From UHGV virus genome UHGV-0097030: 15,489 bases of DNA, one strand, 5' to 3'. Every line of letters starts with the position of its first letter. The stretch's first letter is position 1. The notes beneath the pieces were generated by a model. The model saw only the letters and a list, made by a program, of their open reading frames with translations. It did not search any database and was not told the DNA's origin. Of this stretch, positions 7,356 to 15,489 are shown piece after piece. This DNA comes from a virus. A program made the translations under genes and the position numbers.

Positions 7356-7384
7356 TTGCATTCTAAAAGTACATATCGTATTAT
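7356..7384 (+). promoter_or_regulatory. PR promoter with overlapping OR operator
   Basis: -35 TTGCAT (7356-7361), 17-nt spacer, -10 TATTAT (7379-7384), upstream of cro. Operator-like AGTACATATCGTATT (7368-7382) overlaps the -10 and resembles the OL palindrome. Confidence 0.6.
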
Positions 7385-7410
7385 TGTTTCATGGTTACTA
7401 TGGAGGGCAT

Positions 7411-7626
7411 ATGAGCAACCTACGAAAATATCGAGAGTCACTGAATATCTCTCAAACAACACTTGCTAAGGCAGTTGGATGCACACAGGGAGCTATCGGA
7501 CATTGGGAATCTGGTCGTCGCTTCCCAGACCTTAAAACATGCCGTGCTCTTGTTGAGTGCCTAAACAAGTTAGGCGCAAAAGTCAGTCTTGATGACGTGT
7601 TCCCGCCGGAACACAAAGCCGCTTAA
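7411..7626 (+). CDS. cro: Cro-like HTH repressor
   Basis: 71 aa. ATG at 7411 with GGAGGG upstream. HTH TTLAKAVGCTQGAIGHWESGRR closely resembles the cI HTH. First gene of the rightward operon, diverging from cI. Confidence 0.8.
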   Translation: MSNLRKYRESLNISQTTLAKAVGCTQGAIGHWESGRRFPDLKTCRALVECLNKLGAKVSLDDVFPPEHKAA

Positions 7627-7634
7627 GACATTCC

Positions 7635-7666
7635 CGCTCTTACACATCCCAGCCCTGAAAAAGGGC
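7635..7666 (+). promoter_or_regulatory. nutR site (boxA CGCTCTTAC and boxB GCCCTGAAAAAGGGC)
   Basis: boxA at 7635-7643 and boxB hairpin at 7652-7666 match lambda nutR as recalled. Located between cro and cII. Confidence 0.85.
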
Positions 7667-7742
7667 ATTACCAGAAACAAATCTCTATGGTTTTGCGTTT
7701 CTTTGCGAAGCCAACTCTATCTAATCATTAAGGAAATTATCT

Positions 7743-8024
7743 ATGGTTACTATTGCAACTAAAAGCAAGAAAGCGGCTCGCATCGAGTCAGCCTTGCTGA
7801 ACAAACTGGCACTGATGGGGCAGAAGACATTCGCTCGAGCGATGGGGGTTCCTGAATATCAGGTAAGCCGATGGAAGAATGGTTTCTTCTCGCAGGTAAG
7901 CATGATGCTGGCTGTTCTGGAATACGGAATCGAAGACGATGAAATGGCTGAGCTGACTAAGCGGCTTGCCAATTATCTGACAAAAGAAAAAGCCCAGAAG
8001 AACGGCGAATTCTTCGAGGCCTAA
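7743..8024 (+). CDS. cII: CII transcriptional activator
   Basis: 93 aa. ARIESALLNKLALMG...QVSRWK...SMMLAVLEYGIEDDEMA aligns with lambda CII (LRIESALLNKIAMLG...QISRWK...SMLLAVLEWGVVDDDMA). Confidence 0.85.
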   Translation: MVTIATKSKKAARIESALLNKLALMGQKTFARAMGVPEYQVSRWKNGFFSQVSMMLAVLEYGIEDDEMAELTKRLANYLTKEKAQKNGEFFEA

Positions 8025-8058
8025 TGTAGAAAGACTGGATCAATCCACAGGAGTAATT

Positions 8059-8703
8059 ATGACATACGAAAATGACAAATTCCAGGTTCTGAAGAGCATG
8101 AAGGTGCCAGATGATTTTAAATCAAATGGCTTTGTTTATGTGCTTTCTAATGAGTGCATGCCAGGAATTTATAAGATTGGGATGACTAAGCATTCACCAG
8201 AAGTTAGGGCTAAAGAAATTTCAGCCTCTACTGGCGTTCCTAAGCCATTTAAGGTGATAGCAGCCTTTCATTCAAATAATCCCGCATCAGATGAAAAACT
8301 CATTCATAAAGCCTTTGCAAAAGAGAGGCTTAGTGATAATCGAGAGTTTTTCAAGCTTGAAGATAATGATCTTTCTGAATCTCTAAATGAAATAAGGGCG
8401 CTGGTTGGCCCTGAAAGAAATGGCGAGACGGCAGAATACGCAATTTACGACTCATTCATTTCTTTTCGCCATGAAAATGAGCTTGATCTTAATGAGGAGC
8501 TTATAGAGCAAGGTCTGGGTAGTGTAGTTGGTCATCTTCCTGCGGTGAAAAATTTCCTTATTCGCGCCGGAATTGATTACGCGAAGCAACTGATAAGCAA
8601 ATATAACTCATCGATAGTTATTAATACAGATGGCAGTGTGGTGATGGTTAAGTCTCTTGAAGCCCAATGCTTTGATGCGGAGGTTGGAAATGAGCCTTGC
8701 TGA
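8059..8703 (+). CDS. T5orf172-domain (GIY-YIG-like) protein with uncharacterised C-terminal domain
   Basis: 214 aa. ATG with AGGAG 5 nt upstream. N-terminal half carries the T5orf172/MUG113 pattern (GFVYVLSN...GIYKIGMTKHSPEVRAKEI...PFKV...EKLIHKAFAKERL...REFFKL). AT-rich relative to the flanks. 3' end overlaps the O-like gene start. Confidence 0.7.
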   Translation: MTYENDKFQVLKSMKVPDDFKSNGFVYVLSNECMPGIYKIGMTKHSPEVRAKEISASTGVPKPFKVIAAFHSNNPASDEKLIHKAFAKERLSDNREFFKLEDNDLSESLNEIRALVGPERNGETAEYAIYDSFISFRHENELDLNEELIEQGLGSVVGHLPAVKNFLIRAGIDYAKQLISKYNSSIVINTDGSVVMVKSLEAQCFDAEVGNEPC

Positions 8704-9532
8704 AGTATTTTACCTGCCGAAGAGTGAACCTGTTGAACAGGAGCGAAGAGTGGCTGATATCGATGATGGTTACACCAGATTCGCTAACGAGCTGCTGGAA
8801 GCTATCGCAAGTGCCGATTTAACCGCTCGCCAGTTGAAAGTTATGCTGGCCTACGTCCGGAAAACATATGGATTCAATAAGAAAACAGATCGAATAGCCG
8901 ATGAGCAAATTGCTCAGTTAACAGGACTGTCAAGGCAGAATGTTAACAAGGCTAAAAAAGAACTGATTTCAATGAATTGCCTGTTTATGGATGGAAATCA
9001 AATCGGTGTAAACAGTGAGGTATCTGCGTGGCAATTCAGCAAGTGTCTCCAAGTTAGCAACTTTGTCTCGAAGTTAGAGACAAAAAATGTCTCCAAATTA
9101 GAGACACTCAATGTCTCGAAGTTAGAGACACACAAAAGACATTCTTTAAAGACAAAAGAAAATATTAATAAACCCCCTATATCCCCCAAAAAAGTTTCTC
9201 AGAAGTTCGACCCGCTAGAAACAGAGTTGCCTGATTGGTTATCAGCAGAAACATGGTTGTCGTGGGTTACCTATCGCAAGGAGATAGGTAAGTCGATCAA
9301 GTCTAGGCAAAGTGTCACTCAGGCTATCAACGTTCTAAGCAGAAGTCTGGAGAAGGGATATACACCTGAAGAAATTATAAACCAGAGCATCGCCAGTAGT
9401 TGGCAGGGGATTTTTGAACCCAAGACTCCAAAGGGGAAATCTCAACCGAGGCCGCAGCAGCGAGCTATGCAGGAAAACTTTGCCGCCAAAGATTACGGGC
9501 AAACTGAAATGCCTTCATGGGCGCAGGAGTGA
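8690..9532 (+). CDS. Replication initiator / replisome organiser (O-like) containing ori iterons
   Basis: Track ORF 8657..9532; ATG at 8690 (MSLAEVFYLP...) preferred. N-terminal winged-helix replisome-organiser-like region (DGYTRFANELLEA...LTARQLKVMLAYVRKTYGFNK). Iterons inside the coding sequence encode the repeated peptide SKLETxNVSKLET. Confidence 0.8.
   Translation: MSLAEVFYLPKSEPVEQERRVADIDDGYTRFANELLEAIASADLTARQLKVMLAYVRKTYGFNKKTDRIADEQIAQLTGLSRQNVNKAKKELISMNCLFMDGNQIGVNSEVSAWQFSKCLQVSNFVSKLETKNVSKLETLNVSKLETHKRHSLKTKENINKPPISPKKVSQKFDPLETELPDWLSAETWLSWVTYRKEIGKSIKSRQSVTQAINVLSRSLEKGYTPEEIINQSIASSWQGIFEPKTPKGKSQPRPQQRAMQENFAAKDYGQTEMPSWAQE
9044..9130. repeat. Origin iterons (four 19-bp palindromic repeats) followed by an AT-rich stretch
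   Basis: Four copies of TGTCTC-n-AAnTTAGAGACA at 9044, 9064, 9088 and 9112 (the first degenerate). AT-rich segment at 9131-9200. Arrangement resembles lambda ori within O. Confidence 0.8.
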
Positions 9533-9534
9533 AC

Positions 9535-10380
9535 ATGACGCTGGATGAAAAGATCTCCCAACTGGAGAAAAAACTTGCAGAATTGAGTTCTCCGCCAATT
9601 GCTATCGAGCATACATCTGTAGAAATTGGCACTGGCATCTGTGAAAAACATGGTGAGTTTGAGCAGCGTAACCGTTACTCGACTGGGCCAATTAAGTTTG
9701 CCTCAAGACCTAGCGAATGCCCGGAATGCATGAGAGATGAGCTTATTCGGCTACAGGAAGAGAAGATTAAAATCGACGAGGAATCACGTAAGCGCAATGT
9801 CGAGTTTATGTTGAATAATCTTGATATTCCTGAACGATTCAAGGGTTGCACACTACAGAACTACGAGCCAGTCAACGACGATGCAAAGAGAGTGCTCAGG
9901 GTGTGTCAGGCATACGCCAGCAAATGGCCTGAGAGGTTACAGAAAGGCGGTGGGCTGGTTATGTGTGGAAAGCCTGGTACTGGAAAGAATCATCTTGCAC
10001 TGGCTATCGCCCGGCACGCAATTACGGAACATCAAAGCTCAGCTATTTTCACAACGGCGCTGAAAATTGCCAGAGAATATAAATCAACATGGTCGAAAAA
10101 CTCCACCCGCACAGAGGATGAAGTGATCCGACAGTTCACTAAACCTGACCTGCTAATTATCGATGAGGTTGGTGTGCAGTTTGGAAGCGAGGCGGAAAAG
10201 ATGATCATGTTCGAAATCATCAACACCCGCTACGAGCGCATGAAGCCAACAATCCTGATTAGCAACCAGAGCAAAGATGAACTGTCTGCATTCATTGGTG
10301 AGCGTGTTATTGACAGGATGAATGATGGCGGCGGGTGCACTCTTGCGTTTACATGGGATAGTTACAGGAGCAGATCGTGA
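9535..10380 (+). CDS. DnaC-type helicase loader (AAA+ ATPase, IstB-like)
   Basis: Track ORF 9517..10380; ATG 9535 has AGGAG upstream. Walker A GKPGTGKNHLALAI and Walker B LLIIDEVG. N-terminal Cys/His cluster. Occupies the lambda P position. Confidence 0.85.
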   Translation: MTLDEKISQLEKKLAELSSPPIAIEHTSVEIGTGICEKHGEFEQRNRYSTGPIKFASRPSECPECMRDELIRLQEEKIKIDEESRKRNVEFMLNNLDIPERFKGCTLQNYEPVNDDAKRVLRVCQAYASKWPERLQKGGGLVMCGKPGTGKNHLALAIARHAITEHQSSAIFTTALKIAREYKSTWSKNSTRTEDEVIRQFTKPDLLIIDEVGVQFGSEAEKMIMFEIINTRYERMKPTILISNQSKDELSAFIGERVIDRMNDGGGCTLAFTWDSYRSRS

Positions 10381-10667
10381 CTGGAAAAGAAATCATCCTG
10401 GAATATCTGAAAACTCATGAACAATTCTCCCCACATGAATTAGCACTGATCACCGGAATACCAAATAACAGAATCGCTCAAGCAGCAAGGCATATGGTGA
10501 AACAAGGACATTTGAGTGTTGTTGAGCGTAAGTGGAAGACGGTTATTTATGCAAAACGCAAAGTGAAGAAGGAGCCAATTAAAAGAAATCCAGATGGTAC
10601 GGGGTGGGGATGTGCAAATCCAATGACGGCGTTTATTAATAGGGCGCTTATGGAGGTAAGGCAATGA
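10377..10667 (+). CDS. Hypothetical protein with HTH-like segment
   Basis: 96 aa. GTG start overlaps the upstream stop (GTGA) with AGGAG upstream. HELALITGIPNNRIAQAARHMVKQGHL looks like an HTH. Followed by an intrinsic terminator. Confidence 0.5.
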   Translation: MTGKEIILEYLKTHEQFSPHELALITGIPNNRIAQAARHMVKQGHLSVVERKWKTVIYAKRKVKKEPIKRNPDGTGWGCANPMTAFINRALMEVRQ

Positions 10668-10693
10668 CCATCTACATCACTGAGCTAATAACA

Positions 10694-10724
10694 GGGGCTA
10701 TTTACACAGTAGCCCTTTTTTATT
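10694..10724 (+). terminator. Intrinsic terminator
   Basis: Hairpin GGGCTA-tttacaca-GTAGCCC followed by TTTTTTATT. Confidence 0.6.
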
Positions 10725-10748
10725 GGATTAAGAACGAGGGGTGAGAGA

Positions 10749-10916
10749 GTGAGTGAACCATCTAAACACGCACAGTATTGCCCATTCTGTCAGCGACACA
10801 TTGAGCCTGAGAGAGATGAGTTAGGTGATATCTACACAACAGACAGCGGCGGCATGTTCTACGTCCATGACGAAGTAATTCACGATGAAGATTACACGTT
10901 TACGCCACTTAACTAA
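10749..10916 (+). CDS. Possible small zinc-ribbon protein (55 aa), not in ORF track
   Basis: GTG at 10749 with GAGGGG upstream. Hand translation VSEPSKHAQYCPFCQRHIEPERDELGDIYTTDSGGMFYVHDEVIHDEDYTFTPLN. Sits just after the terminator. Confidence 0.3.
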   Translation: MSEPSKHAQYCPFCQRHIEPERDELGDIYTTDSGGMFYVHDEVIHDEDYTFTPLN

Positions 10917-10941
10917 CACCCCAGCACACTAATGGAGAGAA

Positions 10942-11142
10942 ATGATGACAACGATTGGTGTTCTTTACGACGGGTGGACAAAAGAACGATTAAGACGTCA
11001 TTACAAGATGGCAAAAGTTATCCGCAACAAGCCCTATCGCAATGACTATCGAAAGGTGATGGCAAATAACATGCAGAAGAATATCGACAGGATATTCCCG
11101 CGCGGAAAGGCTGTGTGGCGCTTACTTAAAAATGAGTGGTGA
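10942..11142 (+). CDS. Hypothetical basic protein
   Basis: 66-aa ORF with GGAGA upstream of the ATG pair at 10942/10945. Confidence 0.45.
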   Translation: MMTTIGVLYDGWTKERLRRHYKMAKVIRNKPYRNDYRKVMANNMQKNIDRIFPRGKAVWRLLKNEW

Positions 11143-11474
11143 TGGAGAGGAATATGGACGAATCAAGAAAGCAGTTTGAAGAAAGTTGGTTGCGACGTGG
11201 AGGCGAATCCTCAGACCTTATCCGTTACCCTGAAAATCACCATGAAATTGGCAGCGGTAATATTGGTGGTCAATACGTGATGGACGATGTTCAAGGCCAC
11301 TGGCAAACGTGGCAGGCATCGCGATCAGCTATTGAAATAACCGCGCCAAAGTTTATCGACAGCAGAGAAGCATTAGCCAAAGGGTTTACTGTTGATTATT
11401 CCAATGGCTTCGGTGATGCAATGGATGCTTATGAGGAAAATATCCGCGCTGCTGGAATCAAAGTGAAGGAGTGA
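11142..11474 (+). CDS. Hypothetical protein
   Basis: Track ORF 11136..11474 begins with GTG. ATG at 11142 overlaps the upstream stop (TGATG). An alternative ATG at 11154 has GGAGAGG upstream. Confidence 0.5.
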   Translation: MERNMDESRKQFEESWLRRGGESSDLIRYPENHHEIGSGNIGGQYVMDDVQGHWQTWQASRSAIEITAPKFIDSREALAKGFTVDYSNGFGDAMDAYEENIRAAGIKVKE

Positions 11475-11478
11475 GTAT

Positions 11479-11733
11479 ATGCCATTTATAAAATTAACCA
11501 TGCAATGCAGCATCTATCAGCCACCAAGCACAGGCGTGATAGAAAGCACCAGAAGTGCATATGAGCCCTTGTACGTTAACTCTGACAACATCGAAACCCT
11601 ATTTGAGGCCGGGATTACGATTGTAAGAATGGCAAGTGGTGAGCGGTTCGATGTTATTGAGAAACCAGAAGCTATTTTGGCGTTAATTAATCCATGTGTG
11701 CAGAAGGTGAGCAATGAGGAAACTAACGTTTGA
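11479..11733 (+). CDS. Hypothetical protein
   Basis: 84-aa ORF with AAGGAG 7 nt upstream of the ATG. Confidence 0.5.
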   Translation: MPFIKLTMQCSIYQPPSTGVIESTRSAYEPLYVNSDNIETLFEAGITIVRMASGERFDVIEKPEAILALINPCVQKVSNEETNV

Positions 11734-12130
11734 ACTAAGAAGCCCCATCCATCAGCAGAACGCCATTCAAGCCATCCAGCAAATCCTTCCAGACCCAACC
11801 AAACCAATCGTAGTAACCATTCAGGAACGCAACCGCAGCATTCGGCAAAATGCACGCCTTCACGCGATGCTATCTGAAATAAGTAAGAAGGCTACATATC
11901 ATGGAAAAGCAAGAAATATTGAGTTTTGGAAGGGGTTATTCGTTTCTGGTTGGCAGATTGCAACCAACCAGCACCCTGAGATTATATCAGGGTTAGAAGG
12001 TGAGCTAATAAACATCAGAGAGAGTACGGCGACTCTATCTGTAAAAAAAATATCCGAAATAATGGACTACATAGAAGCATATTGTGCCATGAACTCAATT
12101 CATCTTAGCGAATGGAGGAATTATGATTGA
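11714..12130 (+). CDS. ninB: NinB (Orf-family recombination mediator), mosaic
   Basis: 138 aa. The first 42 residues (MRKLTFELRSPIHQQNAIQAIQQILPDPTKPIVVTIQERNRS) are near-identical to lambda NinB as recalled. The remainder is divergent but alignable (QNxxL...HG...WK) and AT-rich. Confidence 0.75.
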   Translation: MRKLTFELRSPIHQQNAIQAIQQILPDPTKPIVVTIQERNRSIRQNARLHAMLSEISKKATYHGKARNIEFWKGLFVSGWQIATNQHPEIISGLEGELINIRESTATLSVKKISEIMDYIEAYCAMNSIHLSEWRNYD

Positions 12131-12725
12131 GGTTTGGGTAGATATCGAAGGAATTCCATTTTATCAGGTTAGCAATAAAGGAAATTTCAGGTCTATTACG
12201 AGGGAAATTACAGTAACATCAACCAGACAGAGGCCATATAAGAAAATAATTAATGGCACTAGCGTAAAACCATTCAAGTGCAAGTCGACAGGATATCTTC
12301 AAATAAAGGTATACGGTAAGAAATACAGCGCCCACAGGATAGTTGCGAAAGCATTCTGTACAGGGTTCTGTGATGGCTTGGTAGTTAATCACAAAAATGG
12401 GCAAAGAGATGACAATAGGGCTGAAAACCTTGAATGGGTATCACATTCTGAAAACTCAAAGCACGGATATAAACAAAATGGAAGAATACCTATATCGCTA
12501 GGTAAATTTAGTGGTGATCATCCTGCCAGTAAAGCTGTTATTTCTACTGACATGAAAACTGGGGAGGAGGTTTATTATGAAGCAGCTATGGATGCTGTCA
12601 GAGAAGGATTTGATAGTTCGTCAATTAGTCGTTGCTGTAATGGCGAAAGCTCATATCACAAAGGAAGATTCTGGCGATTTGCAAATGAAACAATGAAAGC
12701 GCGATGGGGAGACAGGGCGGCATGA
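12123..12725 (+). CDS. HNH homing-type endonuclease
   Basis: 200 aa. ATG with GGAGG upstream. N-terminal NUMOD4-like [20 protein letters not shown] motif [30 protein letters not shown]-rich. The last residues KARWGDRAA match the lambda NinB C-terminus. Confidence 0.8.
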
Positions 12726-12904
12726 GACGACAGCGACGAAGTATCACCGACATCATCTGCGAAAACTGCAAATACCTTCCAACGAAACGCTCCAGAAATA
12801 AACGCAAGCCAATCCCAAAAGAATCTGACGTAAAAACCTTCAACTACACGGCTCACCTGTGGGATATCCGGTGGCTTAGAGAACGTGCGAGGAAAACAAG
12901 GTGA
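12722..12904 (+). CDS. ninE: NinE
   Basis: Track ORF 12704..12904. ATG 12722 overlaps the HNH stop (ATGA). [23 protein letters not shown]...[21 protein letters not shown] matches lambda NinE as recalled. Confidence 0.8.
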
Positions 12905-13071
12905 TTGACCAAAATCGAAGTTACGAACAAGAAAGCGTCGAGCGAGCTTTAACGTGTGCTAACTGCGGTCAGAAGCTGCATGTGCTGGAAGTTCACGTGT
13001 GTGAGCACTGTTGCGCAGAACTGATGAGCGATCCGAATAGTTCAATGTACGAGGAAGAAGACGATGAGTGA
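12901..13071 (+). CDS. ninF: NinF (small Cys-rich protein), not in ORF track
   Basis: GTG at 12901 overlaps the ninE stop. Hand translation [56 protein letters not shown], lambda NinF-like. Confidence 0.65.
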
Positions 13072-13282
13072 TTCGTTTAGTAGCTCTGATTATTTGTATT
13101 TGGTTTTAGTACCTGTGGCAGAAGTATTCCGCTCTCGATTTCCTGAAGGCTCAGCACCATTTAATGCCATTAGCACTTACTCAAAATGCAGAGTGAAATT
13201 TACAGGTAAGCGGCTGGAAAGAGAGTGGCAGCAATTCTGCAAAAAACATGACCTAAAAAATGACCCTGAACTGGAGTATTAA
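13064..13282 (+). CDS. Hypothetical protein
   Basis: 72-aa ORF. ATG overlaps the ninF 3' end; GAGGAAG upstream. Confidence 0.45.
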   Translation: MSDSFSSSDYLYLVLVPVAEVFRSRFPEGSAPFNAISTYSKCRVKFTGKRLEREWQQFCKKHDLKNDPELEY

Positions 13283-13573
13283 ATGGCTAATCTACGCAAA
13301 GAAGCGCGCGGCAGAGAATGCCAGGTACGTATTTACGGCATATGCAATGGCAATCCTGAAACTACAGTTCTGGCACATTACCGGATGGCTGGAATTTGCG
13401 GAACGGGAATGAAGCCTGACGACCTGATCGGCGCATGGGCTTGTAGCGCGTGTCACGATGAAATCGACCGACGCACCCATAATCTCGACAACAAAGACGC
13501 CAGACTTTACCACCTCGAAGGCGTGATCAGGACGCAGGTGATATTGCTGAAGGAGGGGAAGATTAAGCCATGA
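13283..13573 (+). CDS. ybcO: DUF1364 family protein (YbcO-like, Cys-rich putative nuclease)
   Basis: 96 aa. MANLRKEARGRECQVRIYGICNGNPETTVLAH...CSACHDEIDRRTH closely resembles E. coli DLP12 YbcO as recalled. Confidence 0.7.
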   Translation: MANLRKEARGRECQVRIYGICNGNPETTVLAHYRMAGICGTGMKPDDLIGAWACSACHDEIDRRTHNLDNKDARLYHLEGVIRTQVILLKEGKIKP

Positions 13574-13932
13574 ACGAATATCAGTTTGTGCTTCCATACC
13601 CGCCGTCGGTGAATACCTACTGGCGAAGACGGGGAAGCCAATATTACATAAGCGATAAAGGCCAGAAATACCGAAAAGACGTTCAGCAAATCATCCGCCA
13701 ACTCAAGTTAGACATTTTCACCAAATCACGACTCCGCATCAAAGTCATCGCAGACGTTCCAGACTCCCGCCGCCGCGACCTCGATAACATCCTGAAGGGC
13801 TTACTCGACTCCCTTATCCACGCCGGGTTTGCGGAAGATGACGAGCAATTCGATGACATTCGCGTAATTCGTGGCGTGAAAGTACCAGGCGGAAGGCTTG
13901 GAATAAAAATCACCGAACTGGAGAACGCATGA
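13570..13932 (+). CDS. rusA: RusA Holliday-junction resolvase
   Basis: 120 aa. LPYPPSVNTYWRRRG...RRRDLDNILKGLLDSLIHAGFAEDDEQ...GGRLGIKITELE aligns with E. coli RusA (LPWPPSNNRYYR...RRRDLDNLQKAAFDAL...GGRLELTITEM). ATGA overlap with ybcO. Confidence 0.85.
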   Translation: MNEYQFVLPYPPSVNTYWRRRGSQYYISDKGQKYRKDVQQIIRQLKLDIFTKSRLRIKVIADVPDSRRRDLDNILKGLLDSLIHAGFAEDDEQFDDIRVIRGVKVPGGRLGIKITELENA

Positions 13933-14117
13933 ACGCCACAATTCAAACGATACCAGAGCTTCTTATCCAGACACGAGGCAATCAGACCGAAGTGGCGAGG
14001 ATGCTTTCCTGCGCAAGAGGAACAGTGCTCAAGTACAACCGAGACAGCAAAGGCGAGCGTCACGTAATAGTTAACGGCGTCCTGATGGTCAAACAGGGCA
14101 AGAGGGGTAGACCATGA
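13929..14117 (+). CDS. ninH: NinH
   Basis: 62 aa. GNQTEVARMLSCARGTVLKY...VIVNGVLMV matches lambda NinH (GNQTEVARRLKCSRGTVRKY...AIVNDVLMV). Confidence 0.75.
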   Translation: MNATIQTIPELLIQTRGNQTEVARMLSCARGTVLKYNRDSKGERHVIVNGVLMVKQGKRGRP

Positions 14118-14737
14118 GACTCGAAAGTGTAGCTAAATTTCATTCGCCAAAAAGCCCGATGATGAGCGACTCACCACGGGCCACGGCTTCTGACTCTCTT
14201 TCCGGTACTGATGTGATGGCTGCTATGGGGATGGCGCAATCACAAGCCGGATTCGGAATGGCTGCATTCTGTGGTAAGCACGAACTCAGCCAGAACGACA
14301 AACAAAAGGCTATCAACTATCTGATGCAATTTGCACACAAGGTATCGGGGAAATACCGTGGTGTGGCAAAGCTCGAAGGAAATACTAAGGCAAAGGTACT
14401 GCAAGTGCTCGCAACATTCGCTTATGCGGATTATTGCCGTAGTGCCGCGACGCCGGGCGCAAGATGCAGAGATTGCCACGGTACAGGCCGTGCGGTTGAT
14501 ATTGCCAAAACAGAGTTGTGGGGGAGAGTTGTTGAGAAAGAATGCGGAAGATGCAAAGGTGTCGGCTATTCAAGAATGCCAGCAAGCGCCGCATATCGCG
14601 CTGTAACGATGCTAATCCCAAACCTTACTCAACCCACCTGGTCACGCACTGTTAAGCCGCTGTATGACGCTCTGGTGGTGCAATGCCACAAGGAAGAGTC
14701 AATCGCAGACAATATCTTGAATGCGGTCACACGTTAG
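14114..14737 (+). CDS. Q: Late antiterminator Q (lambda-type)
   Basis: 207 aa beginning MRLESVAKFHSPKSPMMSDSPRATASDS..., matching lambda Q as recalled. Zinc-binding CRDCHGTG...CGRCKG. Immediately upstream of a PR'-like promoter. Confidence 0.9.
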   Translation: MRLESVAKFHSPKSPMMSDSPRATASDSLSGTDVMAAMGMAQSQAGFGMAAFCGKHELSQNDKQKAINYLMQFAHKVSGKYRGVAKLEGNTKAKVLQVLATFAYADYCRSAATPGARCRDCHGTGRAVDIAKTELWGRVVEKECGRCKGVGYSRMPASAAYRAVTMLIPNLTQPTWSRTVKPLYDALVVQCHKEESIADNILNAVTR

Positions 14738-14779
14738 CAGCATGATTGCCACGGATGGCAACATATTAACGGCATAATA

Positions 14780-14808
14780 TTGACTTTTTGAATAAAGTTG
14801 GGTAAATT
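14780..14808 (+). promoter_or_regulatory. PR' late promoter (with qut region)
   Basis: -35 TTGACT (14780-14785), 17-nt spacer, -10 TAAATT (14803-14808). Near-identical to the lambda PR' context TTGACTTATTGAATAAAATTGGGTAAATTTGACTCAACGATGG as recalled. Confidence 0.8.
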
Positions 14809-14844
14809 TGACTCAACGATGGATAAATGCACTCGTTAAATAAA

Positions 14845-14873
14845 GCCCTGAGTTAATAGCTCGGGGCTTTTTG
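14845..14873 (+). terminator. Intrinsic terminator close to PR' (tR'-equivalent)
   Basis: Hairpin GCCCTGAG-ttaatag-CTCGGGGC followed by TTTTTG, about 35-60 nt downstream of the predicted PR' start. Confidence 0.65.
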
Positions 14874-15172
14874 CGTTTTAAGCACGACCTTTCTGAAAGC
14901 GCATCAAACCAAATACCAGACAGACCAAAATAATCACCTTATCCGCTGTGGCTACGGTGCGGTGTGCTTTGCATAAAAGAAAACCAGCGCAATGGCTGGC
15001 TTCGTGAAAGCGGGTGGCAAGAGGTTGCACTAACAACCTCATGCCGTTTTGCCCGTGCATATCGGTCACGAACAAATCTGATTACTAAACACAGTAGCCT
15101 GGATTTGTTCTATCAGTAATCGACCTTATTCCTAATTAAATAGAGCAAATCCCCTCAATGAAGGGGTAGAGC

Positions 15173-15376
15173 ATGTACCGTATGGACAAAATCAGAGAAT
15201 GGTTCAGTTACAGCTTCGGAGGACTGACTGCGATGGGTGGCATTCTCTCCCTGAATGACTGGGCTGTCATCATTGGTATTCTTTGTACTGTCGGCACATT
15301 TGGCATCAACTGGTACTACAAGCGCAAAGAGCGCGAGGACAGATTGAATGGCAATGTCACCGGCACTACGAAATAG
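15173..15376 (+). CDS. Holin (pinholin-like, two TM segments, dual-start motif)
   Basis: 67 aa. Preceded by a lambda-like late leader and SD AAGGGG. Begins MYRM (Met1 and Met4). TM1 is Gly/Ala/Ser-rich ([17 protein letters not shown]); TM2 is hydrophobic; charged C-terminus KRKEREDR. Confidence 0.65.
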
Positions 15377-15489
15377 CGTAATAGCGGCGATAAGTGGCGG
15401 GGCTATTGCTATAGCATCTGTGTTAATCACTGGGCCAAGTGGTAACGATGGTCTGGAAGGTGTCAGCTACATACCATACAAAGATATTG
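15348..15489 (+). CDS. SAR endolysin (phage 21 R-like), 5' partial, runs off window end
   Basis: Hand translation from ATG 15348 (or 15354): [47 protein letters not shown]. Matches the phage 21 R21 N-terminus ([45 protein letters not shown]...) as recalled. Overlaps the holin 3' end. Confidence 0.7.

Follow-up and report, generated by a model that had tools for sequence, protein, structure and literature searches.

A lambda-type late leader, an HP1-family holin gene and an R21-type SAR endolysin gene at the end of a lambdoid phage sequence

Layout of the late region and its leader

The window, by which the whole stretch of analysed DNA is meant (15,489 nucleotides of the virus genome UHGV-0097030), ends inside a lysis cassette of lambdoid type, its last ~340 bases comprising a leader hairpin, a holin gene and the start of a gene for a SAR endolysin. 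The late-gene features described here lie on the plus strand. A late-gene antiterminator of the lambda Q type is encoded at 14114..14737 (207 aa; Pfam PF03589 Antiterm, E 6e-58) and is annotated as Q in Salmonella phage Emek and in an E. coli prophage. The late promoter pR' (TTGACT-17-TAAATT, 14780-14808) was located by a promoter scan, has the lambda hexamers and is near-identical to lambda pR'; together with an overlapping qut site it occupies 14780..14828, the qut annotation of Emek (36731-36760) corresponding to 14799-14828 of the window. A tR'-type intrinsic terminator, which is also annotated as a terminator in Emek, is found at 14842..14880, where a 13-bp stem (14842-14870) is followed by a run of T. 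A conserved leader block of the lambda type (15000..15155) then ends at the 5' arm of a hairpin with the arms CCCCT and AGGGG and the loop caatga (15151..15166), whose 3' arm (15162..15166) is Shine-Dalgarno-like and lies 6 nt before the first ATG of the holin gene (15173..15376). The translated 5' end of the SAR endolysin gene (15348..15489) comprises 47 codons and is cut by the end of the window, and the start of this ORF at 15348 overlaps the end of the holin ORF by 29 nt.

Over positions 14738-15489, the window is 98.4% identical to Emek, in which the qut site, the terminator, the holin, the lysin and Rz are annotated. For 15100-15489, an E. coli prophage is the best match, at 100% identity, and the whole arrangement was found in 82 of 5426 complete E. 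coli genomes. The P22-like Salmonella phages PS119, PS34, ST104, SE1, SPN9CC, BTP1 and vB_SemP_Emek carry the same leader, 29-nt overlap and SAR lysozyme in their gp13/gp19 region at 92-98% DNA identity, and the holin is 100% identical to gp13 of PS119, ST104, SE1, SPN9CC, BTP1 and Emek. There is essentially no difference in the lysis region from these phages, in whose records the two genes are called 'class II holin' and lysozyme, whereas the early part of the window stands nearer to the lambdoid phages of E. coli. The window is a typical lambdoid mosaic, probably from an E. coli prophage. The region is likely to be the promoter-proximal end of a late operon, belonging to a lambdoid prophage of P22-like or lambda-like type, a likelihood that applies jointly to this reading and to the overall interpretation given below. 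The cassette is ordinary and already known: the term 'class II holin' is used for this holin family both in the P22-like records and in the annotation of phiE125, and the CPT annotation of the pair in Klebsiella phage Mulock gives 'holin' and 'SAR endolysin'. With regard to the remainder of the sequence, the early and nin regions (window 1-15175) match the E. coli lambdoid phages vB_EcoP-720R6, N7 and mEp043 piecewise at 96-97% identity, unlike the lysis genes, which match Salmonella P22-like phages.

The leader extends for ~300 nt after pR' and tR', and its last 156 nt are those of lambda. The resemblance to lambda is confined to two blocks, one at 14738-14838 (pR'/qut), which is near-identical, and one at 15000-15155, which is 97.4% identical, while the segment between them (14838-14999, the 6S-RNA region of lambda) is shortened and divergent. 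Before the terminator, the pR'-proximal transcript is without ~135 nt that are present in the lambda 6S RNA. A short pR'-proximal transcript and a divergent post-terminator segment are also features in which the leader resembles the P22/Emek arrangement. The block at 15000-15155 recurs with 96-99% identity in more than 120 phage records, among them lambda, HK022, HK97 and the mEp phages, which have lambda-S-type holins, and Salmonella P22-like phages, which have the present holin. In phages with lambda-S-type holins, every match to the block breaks off at 15155, where the 5' arm of the hairpin has its last base. Past this joint, lambda continues with TATTGGGGGTAAGACATG and the window with CAATGAAGGGGTAGAGCATG, and in both a G-run is complementary to the common CCCC. 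A first-pass annotation of the window had described the late leader as lambda-like up to the holin, and the identity of the block that ends at 15155 bears this out.

Several further elements were noticed in the leader. The block at 15000-15155 is untranslated, and the genes that flank it differ among E. coli and Salmonella lambdoid phages despite its 96-99% identity. It contains a 7-bp hairpin, GAGGTTG/CAACCTC (15021-15040), with the counterpart GGAGGT/ACCTCC in lambda, and a terminator-like hairpin is found on the minus strand at 15003-14980. An Rfam scan of 14600-15489 returned chance-level matches only. A small hydrophobic protein encoded on the minus strand (14878-15075) was considered and rejected, with no Pfam or PHROG family and a frame that is broken or changed in VSe13. 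This minus-strand ORF ends in the hydrophobic tail …DKVIILVCLVFGLMRFQKGRA, its frame is kept in HK140 and not in VSe13 or lambda, and a 'TVATA' match to lambda had resembled synonymous conservation. On the plus strand, a 51-aa ORF with a GTG start (14964-15119) matches phrog_22751 (E 7e-42), a family of unknown function, and carries the annotation 'hypothetical' in HK140. No Pfam family matches it, its composition is not protein-like and its sequence is too conserved for a coding test; the conserved leader may have given rise to it as an annotation artefact.

The holin and the SAR endolysin

The holin gene encodes a protein of 67 aa when read from ATG1 (15173) or 64 aa when read from ATG4 (15182). 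Residues 5-53 match PF16080 (Phage_holin_2_3, the HP1 family) with 75.1 bits against a cutoff of 28.8 (E 4.4e-21), the PHROGs match is phrog_20 (holin), and all 45 database homologues of the protein carry PF16080. The score against PF04971 (Phage_holin_2_1, the family of phage 21 S) was 19.5 bits, below the cutoff of 26, and BLASTP against S21 from the phage 21 genome found no clear pairwise similarity (E = 0.27). Yet when a 14-member family profile was compared with S21 by hhalign, the two aligned with 92.8% probability (E 3.9e-7, 33% identity), over a span that begins at the dual start, covers both helices and reaches the charged tail. Because the PF04971 score stays below its cutoff and BLASTP finds no clear similarity, while the family profile does align, the holin is, as far as its sequence tells, an HP1-family protein that is only distantly homologous to S21 and lies outside the S21 family. 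With regard to lambda S, the holin has no Pfam match to the lambda S family and no alignment past the start codon. Lambda S is a class I holin of ~105 aa (105/107 aa) with three transmembrane domains (TMDs), compared with 67 aa and two helices here, and the lambda endolysin R also differs, being a cytoplasmic transglycosylase without a SAR domain.

A class II topology is predicted for the holin, with two transmembrane helices and a charged C-terminal tail. The first predicted segment, TMD1 (W10-L27, 15200..15253), was placed by hydropathy and composition and the second, TMD2 (W30-Y48, 15260..15316), by hydropathy, and an AlphaFold2 model from a 19-sequence alignment has helices at residues 3-27 and 29-58, with modest confidence (pLDDT 65.5). 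TMD1 is weakly hydrophobic, with 50% Gly/Ala/Ser/Thr as against 55% in TMD1 of S21 and a mean Kyte-Doolittle (KD) value of 1.02 as against 0.52. TMD2 is more hydrophobic (Wimley-White octanol dG -8.0 for residues 30-48) and is followed by the charged tail KRKEREDR. The turn between the helices has only two residues, N28-D29, in contrast to a loop of ~7 residues in S21, and four charged residues (D5, K6, R8 and E9) precede TMD1; because of these charges and the short turn, an exit of TMD1 in the manner of S21 would be harder. The earlier description of the gene product as a 67-aa holin other than lambda S, with two transmembrane segments and a first helix rich in Gly/Ala/Ser, agrees with these predictions.

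The endolysin ORF has 167 aa in full, both in Emek and in the E. coli prophage that shares 100% identity with window 15100-15489. The full-length protein, taken from records with 98-100% identity to the window, is 93-94% identical to R21, and the Emek orthologue matches PF00959 (T4-lysozyme-like, E 8.8e-46). Of the catalytic triad E-x8-D-x5-T, Glu (15456-15458) and Asp (15483-15485) lie in the window, and Thr, beyond its end, is seen in the E. coli prophage and in Emek. The SAR domain (~15378-15428), preceded by R8, is a 17-residue segment with 53% G/A/S/T, a KD value of 2.43 and a Wimley-White dG of ~-1. The 93-94% identity to R21 suggests that the enzyme would be exported in a Sec-dependent manner, tethered in the membrane and released on depolarisation. 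According to a review, the SPN9CC endolysin requires its N-terminal region for activity. The ORF opens with two close in-frame ATGs, M-A-M-S-P (15348-15356), of which RefSeq uses the second (the Met3 form). Both 'MAMSP' and the 29-nt overlap with the holin are retained even by cassettes whose endolysin body belongs to another type (e.g. ...VSGKTGLEGREH).

The partnership recurs among relatives. In 80 IMG/VR loci encoding members of the holin family, 69 distinct holin/endolysin pairs were found, and all 69 include a lysozyme with a Gly/Ala-rich N-terminal hydrophobic segment and none a cytoplasmic endolysin. The E-x8-D-x5-T triad is present in all but one of the full-length partner lysozymes, and in these 69 relatives the holin gene lies upstream of the endolysin gene and adjoins it, in the same or a similar layout.

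Within the window, the endolysin is identical to R21 from ~residue 16 onward. In a four-way alignment with phage 21, lambda and Emek, the stretch 15394..15489 is nearly identical in DNA to phage 21 R, this identity beginning at ~15394, whereas the holin overlap and the first ~15 endolysin codons are specific to the present cassette. Phage 21 further resembles the window in having a two-TMD class II holin (pinholin S21-68 and antiholin S21-71) with a Gly/Ala/Ser/Thr-rich TMD1, a start of the form M-x-x-M with a basic residue followed by MDKI, and a hairpin over the Shine-Dalgarno sequence; it differs in its own Q, pR' and leader and in the presence of tRNA genes. The first-pass annotation had seen a phage 21 R-like SAR domain at the start of the second gene, as is confirmed by the identity to R21 over the full length, and had described the locus as lambda regulatory DNA combined with a phage 21-type lysis module. 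That description stands with regard to function and to the descent of the endolysin body, and has to be given up with regard to the descent of the holin. As only the endolysin body is phage 21 DNA and the holin is of the HP1 family, the mosaic is, judging from the alignments, composed of three blocks: the lambda-type leader up to 15155, the HP1-family holin with the first ~15 endolysin codons, and the R21-type endolysin body from ~15394. This three-part structure and the family of the holin are all that is refined over the earlier account.

Start codons and the hairpin over the Shine-Dalgarno sequence

The holin ORF (15173-15376) begins MYRMDKI, with ATG1 and ATG4 in frame. The spacing of 6 nt between AGGGG and ATG1 is good for a Shine-Dalgarno (SD) sequence, and ATG4 is preceded by a weak GAG 10 nt upstream. 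Down to ~50% identity, relatives conserve the pattern M-x-[R/K]-M or M-[R/K]-M, which is also found in nearly all of the 80 IMG/VR loci; both Met codons and the basic residue are kept, and residue 2 is free (Y/Q/H/T/N/K/A). The Met1/Met4 pair in MYRM, which had been pointed out earlier as a possible source of antiholin and holin forms, is thus conserved together with Arg3. Lambda S has a comparable dual start with a basic residue, MKM in place of MYRM. The longer 67-aa form carries one more N-terminal positive charge, Arg3. What sets the antiholins S107 and S21-71 apart from the active holins is an additional positive charge at the N-terminus, and the same dual-start architecture has been established experimentally as dual-start in lambda S and S21 (PMC9636201). 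By analogy, the two predicted products of the present gene may have holin and antiholin roles. RefSeq annotates only the 64-aa Met4 form, which several database entries give as well.

The hairpin has a 5-bp stem, formed by CCCCT (15151-15155) and AGGGG (15162-15166), and the loop CAATGA (15156-15161). When 15140-15190 was folded with RNAfold, the hairpin appeared in both the minimum free energy (MFE) and the centroid structures, the local fold z-score being only -1.75, and the mean pairing probability of the SD motif was 0.73. Hairpins with stems of at least 5 bp occur at 8.8 per kb in the window, and the hairpin by itself is therefore not beyond chance; ~5% of shuffles of the upstream arm region form an equally good hairpin at the SD, and the shuffle tests of individual sequences are weak one by one (p 0.01-0.45). 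What gives the hairpin significance is that it covers the SD, is homologous in sequence to that of lambda and recurs in relatives. It aligns arm for arm with the hairpin 5' of lambda S (CCCCTTATTGGGGG) and is its homologue in both position and sequence, with an identical 5' arm and GGGG(G)TA in common in the 3' arm. As in an sdi-type structure, the stem-loop lies directly 5' of a dual-start holin gene and its 3' arm includes the SD for the first start. The likeness to the sdi structure of lambda suggested by the first-pass annotation is upheld by the sequence, the MFE and centroid folds and the alignment to lambda, and the hairpin may exert a control of the sdi type. The lambda hairpin is reportedly the genetically defined sdi element, and the stability of the stem is said to alter the ratio of initiation at the two starts in lambda and, as has also been reported, in S21. 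A regulatory role of the present hairpin would follow from its homology to lambda sdi together with the precedent of S21, and the comparison of relatives lends it mixed support.

In close relatives, the hairpin keeps its CCCC/GGGG core, with variation in the loop and in the closing pair (T-A or A-T). Unrelated leaders again place the SD under a stem (TCCGA/TCGGA, TCCGT/ACGGA or CCTCC/GGGGG), and phage 21 has a TCCG/CGGA hairpin over its SD. Predicted SD pairing averaged 0.78 over 39 distinct holin starts, compared with 0.46 over 170 other gene starts of these loci; the p-value of this comparison is inflated by the relatedness of the holin sequences. Start and SD structure were also read in ten phage relatives that are more distant. 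The IMG/VR set (L071) had suggested a rule by which dual-start genes have the hairpin and single-start genes are without it, and this rule failed with the more distant relatives. Several of these are single-start without an SD hairpin (APSE-7, Mannheimia), but SD pairing is predicted as well for mEp515 and phiE125, which are single-start, so that the evidence falls short of tying the hairpin specifically to a dual start.

Proposed lysis pathway and alternative readings

The overall interpretation, which is considered likely, is that of a Q-driven lambda-type leader followed by an HP1-family, dual-start class II holin of pinholin-like character and an R21-type SAR lysozyme. Judging from the sequence, Q-modified polymerase reads through tR' and produces a long leader transcript. 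On the model of S21/R21, HP1 Hol/Lys and lambda S, the endolysin would be exported by Sec and remain tethered in the inner membrane in an inactive state, while the holin would build up harmlessly until it triggers and depolarises the membrane via small holes; this depolarisation would in turn free and activate the endolysin. Translation from ATG1 and ATG4 would yield a 67-aa weak inhibitor, the putative antiholin with Arg3, and a 64-aa effector. With its 3' arm serving as the SD for ATG1, the hairpin may limit initiation at that codon and thereby help to set the holin:antiholin ratio and the time of lysis.

The presumed small size of the holes is suggested by analogy. Small holes (~2 nm) and depolarisation without the release of cytoplasmic proteins have been described for S21 and HP1 Hol only (PMC9636201, PMC7312051). 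HP1 Hol, of a Haemophilus phage, is the prototype of PF16080 and is lethal to E. coli without lysis and without the release of beta-galactosidase (PMC7312051). It is required for timely lysis with the SAR endolysin, and the authors concluded that it is a pinholin, for which they reported a different activated topology and no dual start (PMC7312051). This topology, like the four charges ahead of TMD1 and the two-residue turn, speaks against a strictly S21-like mechanism in the present holin. The HP1 hol gene resembles the present one in its family and in its overlap with the gene of a SAR lysozyme, Lys. It differs in that its product has 78 aa and a single start, and in that it lies in a P2-like myovirus late operon and not behind a lambda Q/pR' leader.

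Large-hole holins can also serve SAR endolysins, and the pairing with a SAR endolysin hence does not prove pinhole size. The holin could instead be a canonical large-hole class II holin, which would permeabilise the membrane non-specifically, the SAR endolysin being freed by the resulting depolarisation. SAR endolysins need nothing more than a depolarisation, which any holin can provide, as with Lyz and LydA of P1, and in the same direction point the Pfam membership in the HP1 family instead of that of S21, the somewhat greater hydrophobicity of TMD1 (KD mean 1.02, against 0.52 in S21) and the four N-terminal charges and two-residue turn, which argue against externalisation of TMD1. A large-hole holin is nevertheless thought unlikely, in view of the HP1 prototype, which killed without lysis and without beta-galactosidase release, of the remote homology to S21 across both TMDs, and of the family members examined, all of which are paired with SAR lysozymes and never with a cytoplasmic endolysin. 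It also appears improbable that a single start is in use, either Met4, as in RefSeq, or Met1, with no antiholin being made and with the hairpin merely tuning total holin translation or stabilising the long leader RNA. PGAP and a number of database entries call the 64-aa form, HP1 Hol is single-start like several other family members, an SD-occluding structure is predicted in single-start relatives too, and ATG4 has only the weak GAG before it. Against this, both ATGs and the basic residue are conserved to ~50% identity while residue 2 varies, AGGGG is well spaced from ATG1, and lambda S and S21, which have the same architecture, are experimentally dual-start.

A hairpin without a function of its own is judged very unlikely, although an equal one arises in 5% of the shuffles and such hairpins are as frequent as 8.8 per kb. 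It would then be a chance complement of a G-rich SD and a C-run in the leader, a recombination scar or hot spot, for which the mosaic joint exactly at the end of the 5' arm could speak, or a minus-strand terminator, for which a terminator scan indeed gives a weak terminator-like site. The T tail of that site is poor (ATTTGCTCTA), however, and the CCCC of the 5' arm is kept in relatives with differing loops and closing pairs, while other leaders and phage 21 again have an equivalent hairpin, of unrelated sequence. The lambda hairpin, to which the present one is homologous, is moreover the reported sdi element.

A wider reading may tentatively be proposed, which is possible but rather doubtful. 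The SD-occluding hairpin would be a selected, portable junction, and, in contrast to HP1 itself, the enterobacterial branch of its family would produce an antiholin bearing Arg3 or Lys and so constitute a second, independent class II dual-start system beside S21. The joint lies between the arms of the hairpin, yet each cassette, whether class I of the lambda S type or class II of the HP1 type, supplies a complementary 3' arm, and the swapping of holins would therefore preserve dual-start translational control.

The cassette is of little importance beyond its correct annotation. It illustrates how lambdoid lysis genes are exchanged at sharp joints while a presumably regulatory RNA hairpin and a dual-start motif are kept, and it indicates that the cassettes of P22-like phages described by 'class II holin plus SAR endolysin' have a holin of the HP1 family and not S21. 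For the annotation of such loci, it should be borne in mind that RefSeq starts the holin only at Met4 and the endolysin only at Met3. Proof of a functional dual start in this family would widen the holin/antiholin paradigm from lambda S and S21 to the HP1 family.

Some of the relatives depart from the common layout. An 89-aa holin variant (loci L065, L068 and L070-L083; holin at ~1363-1632) starts with M-T-[K/R]-M-S-T, has an insertion of ~22 residues between the helices and is preceded by a phage 21-like TCCG/CGGA hairpin over its SD. PF16080 and PF04971 occur together in one database member, which bridges the HP1 and S21 families. In IMG/VR locus L037 (1435-1695), a replaced leader precedes a holin ORF with an upstream extension (MLSPSQ…LTCAMDKI…), in which Met1-Arg3 is lost and the rest of the protein kept; this locus may be a rearranged or decayed prophage. 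In APSE-7 (locus L088, 410-890), a single-start class II holin of the HP1 family is directly followed by a lambda-like class I holin and then by the lysozyme, which places two holin classes in tandem.
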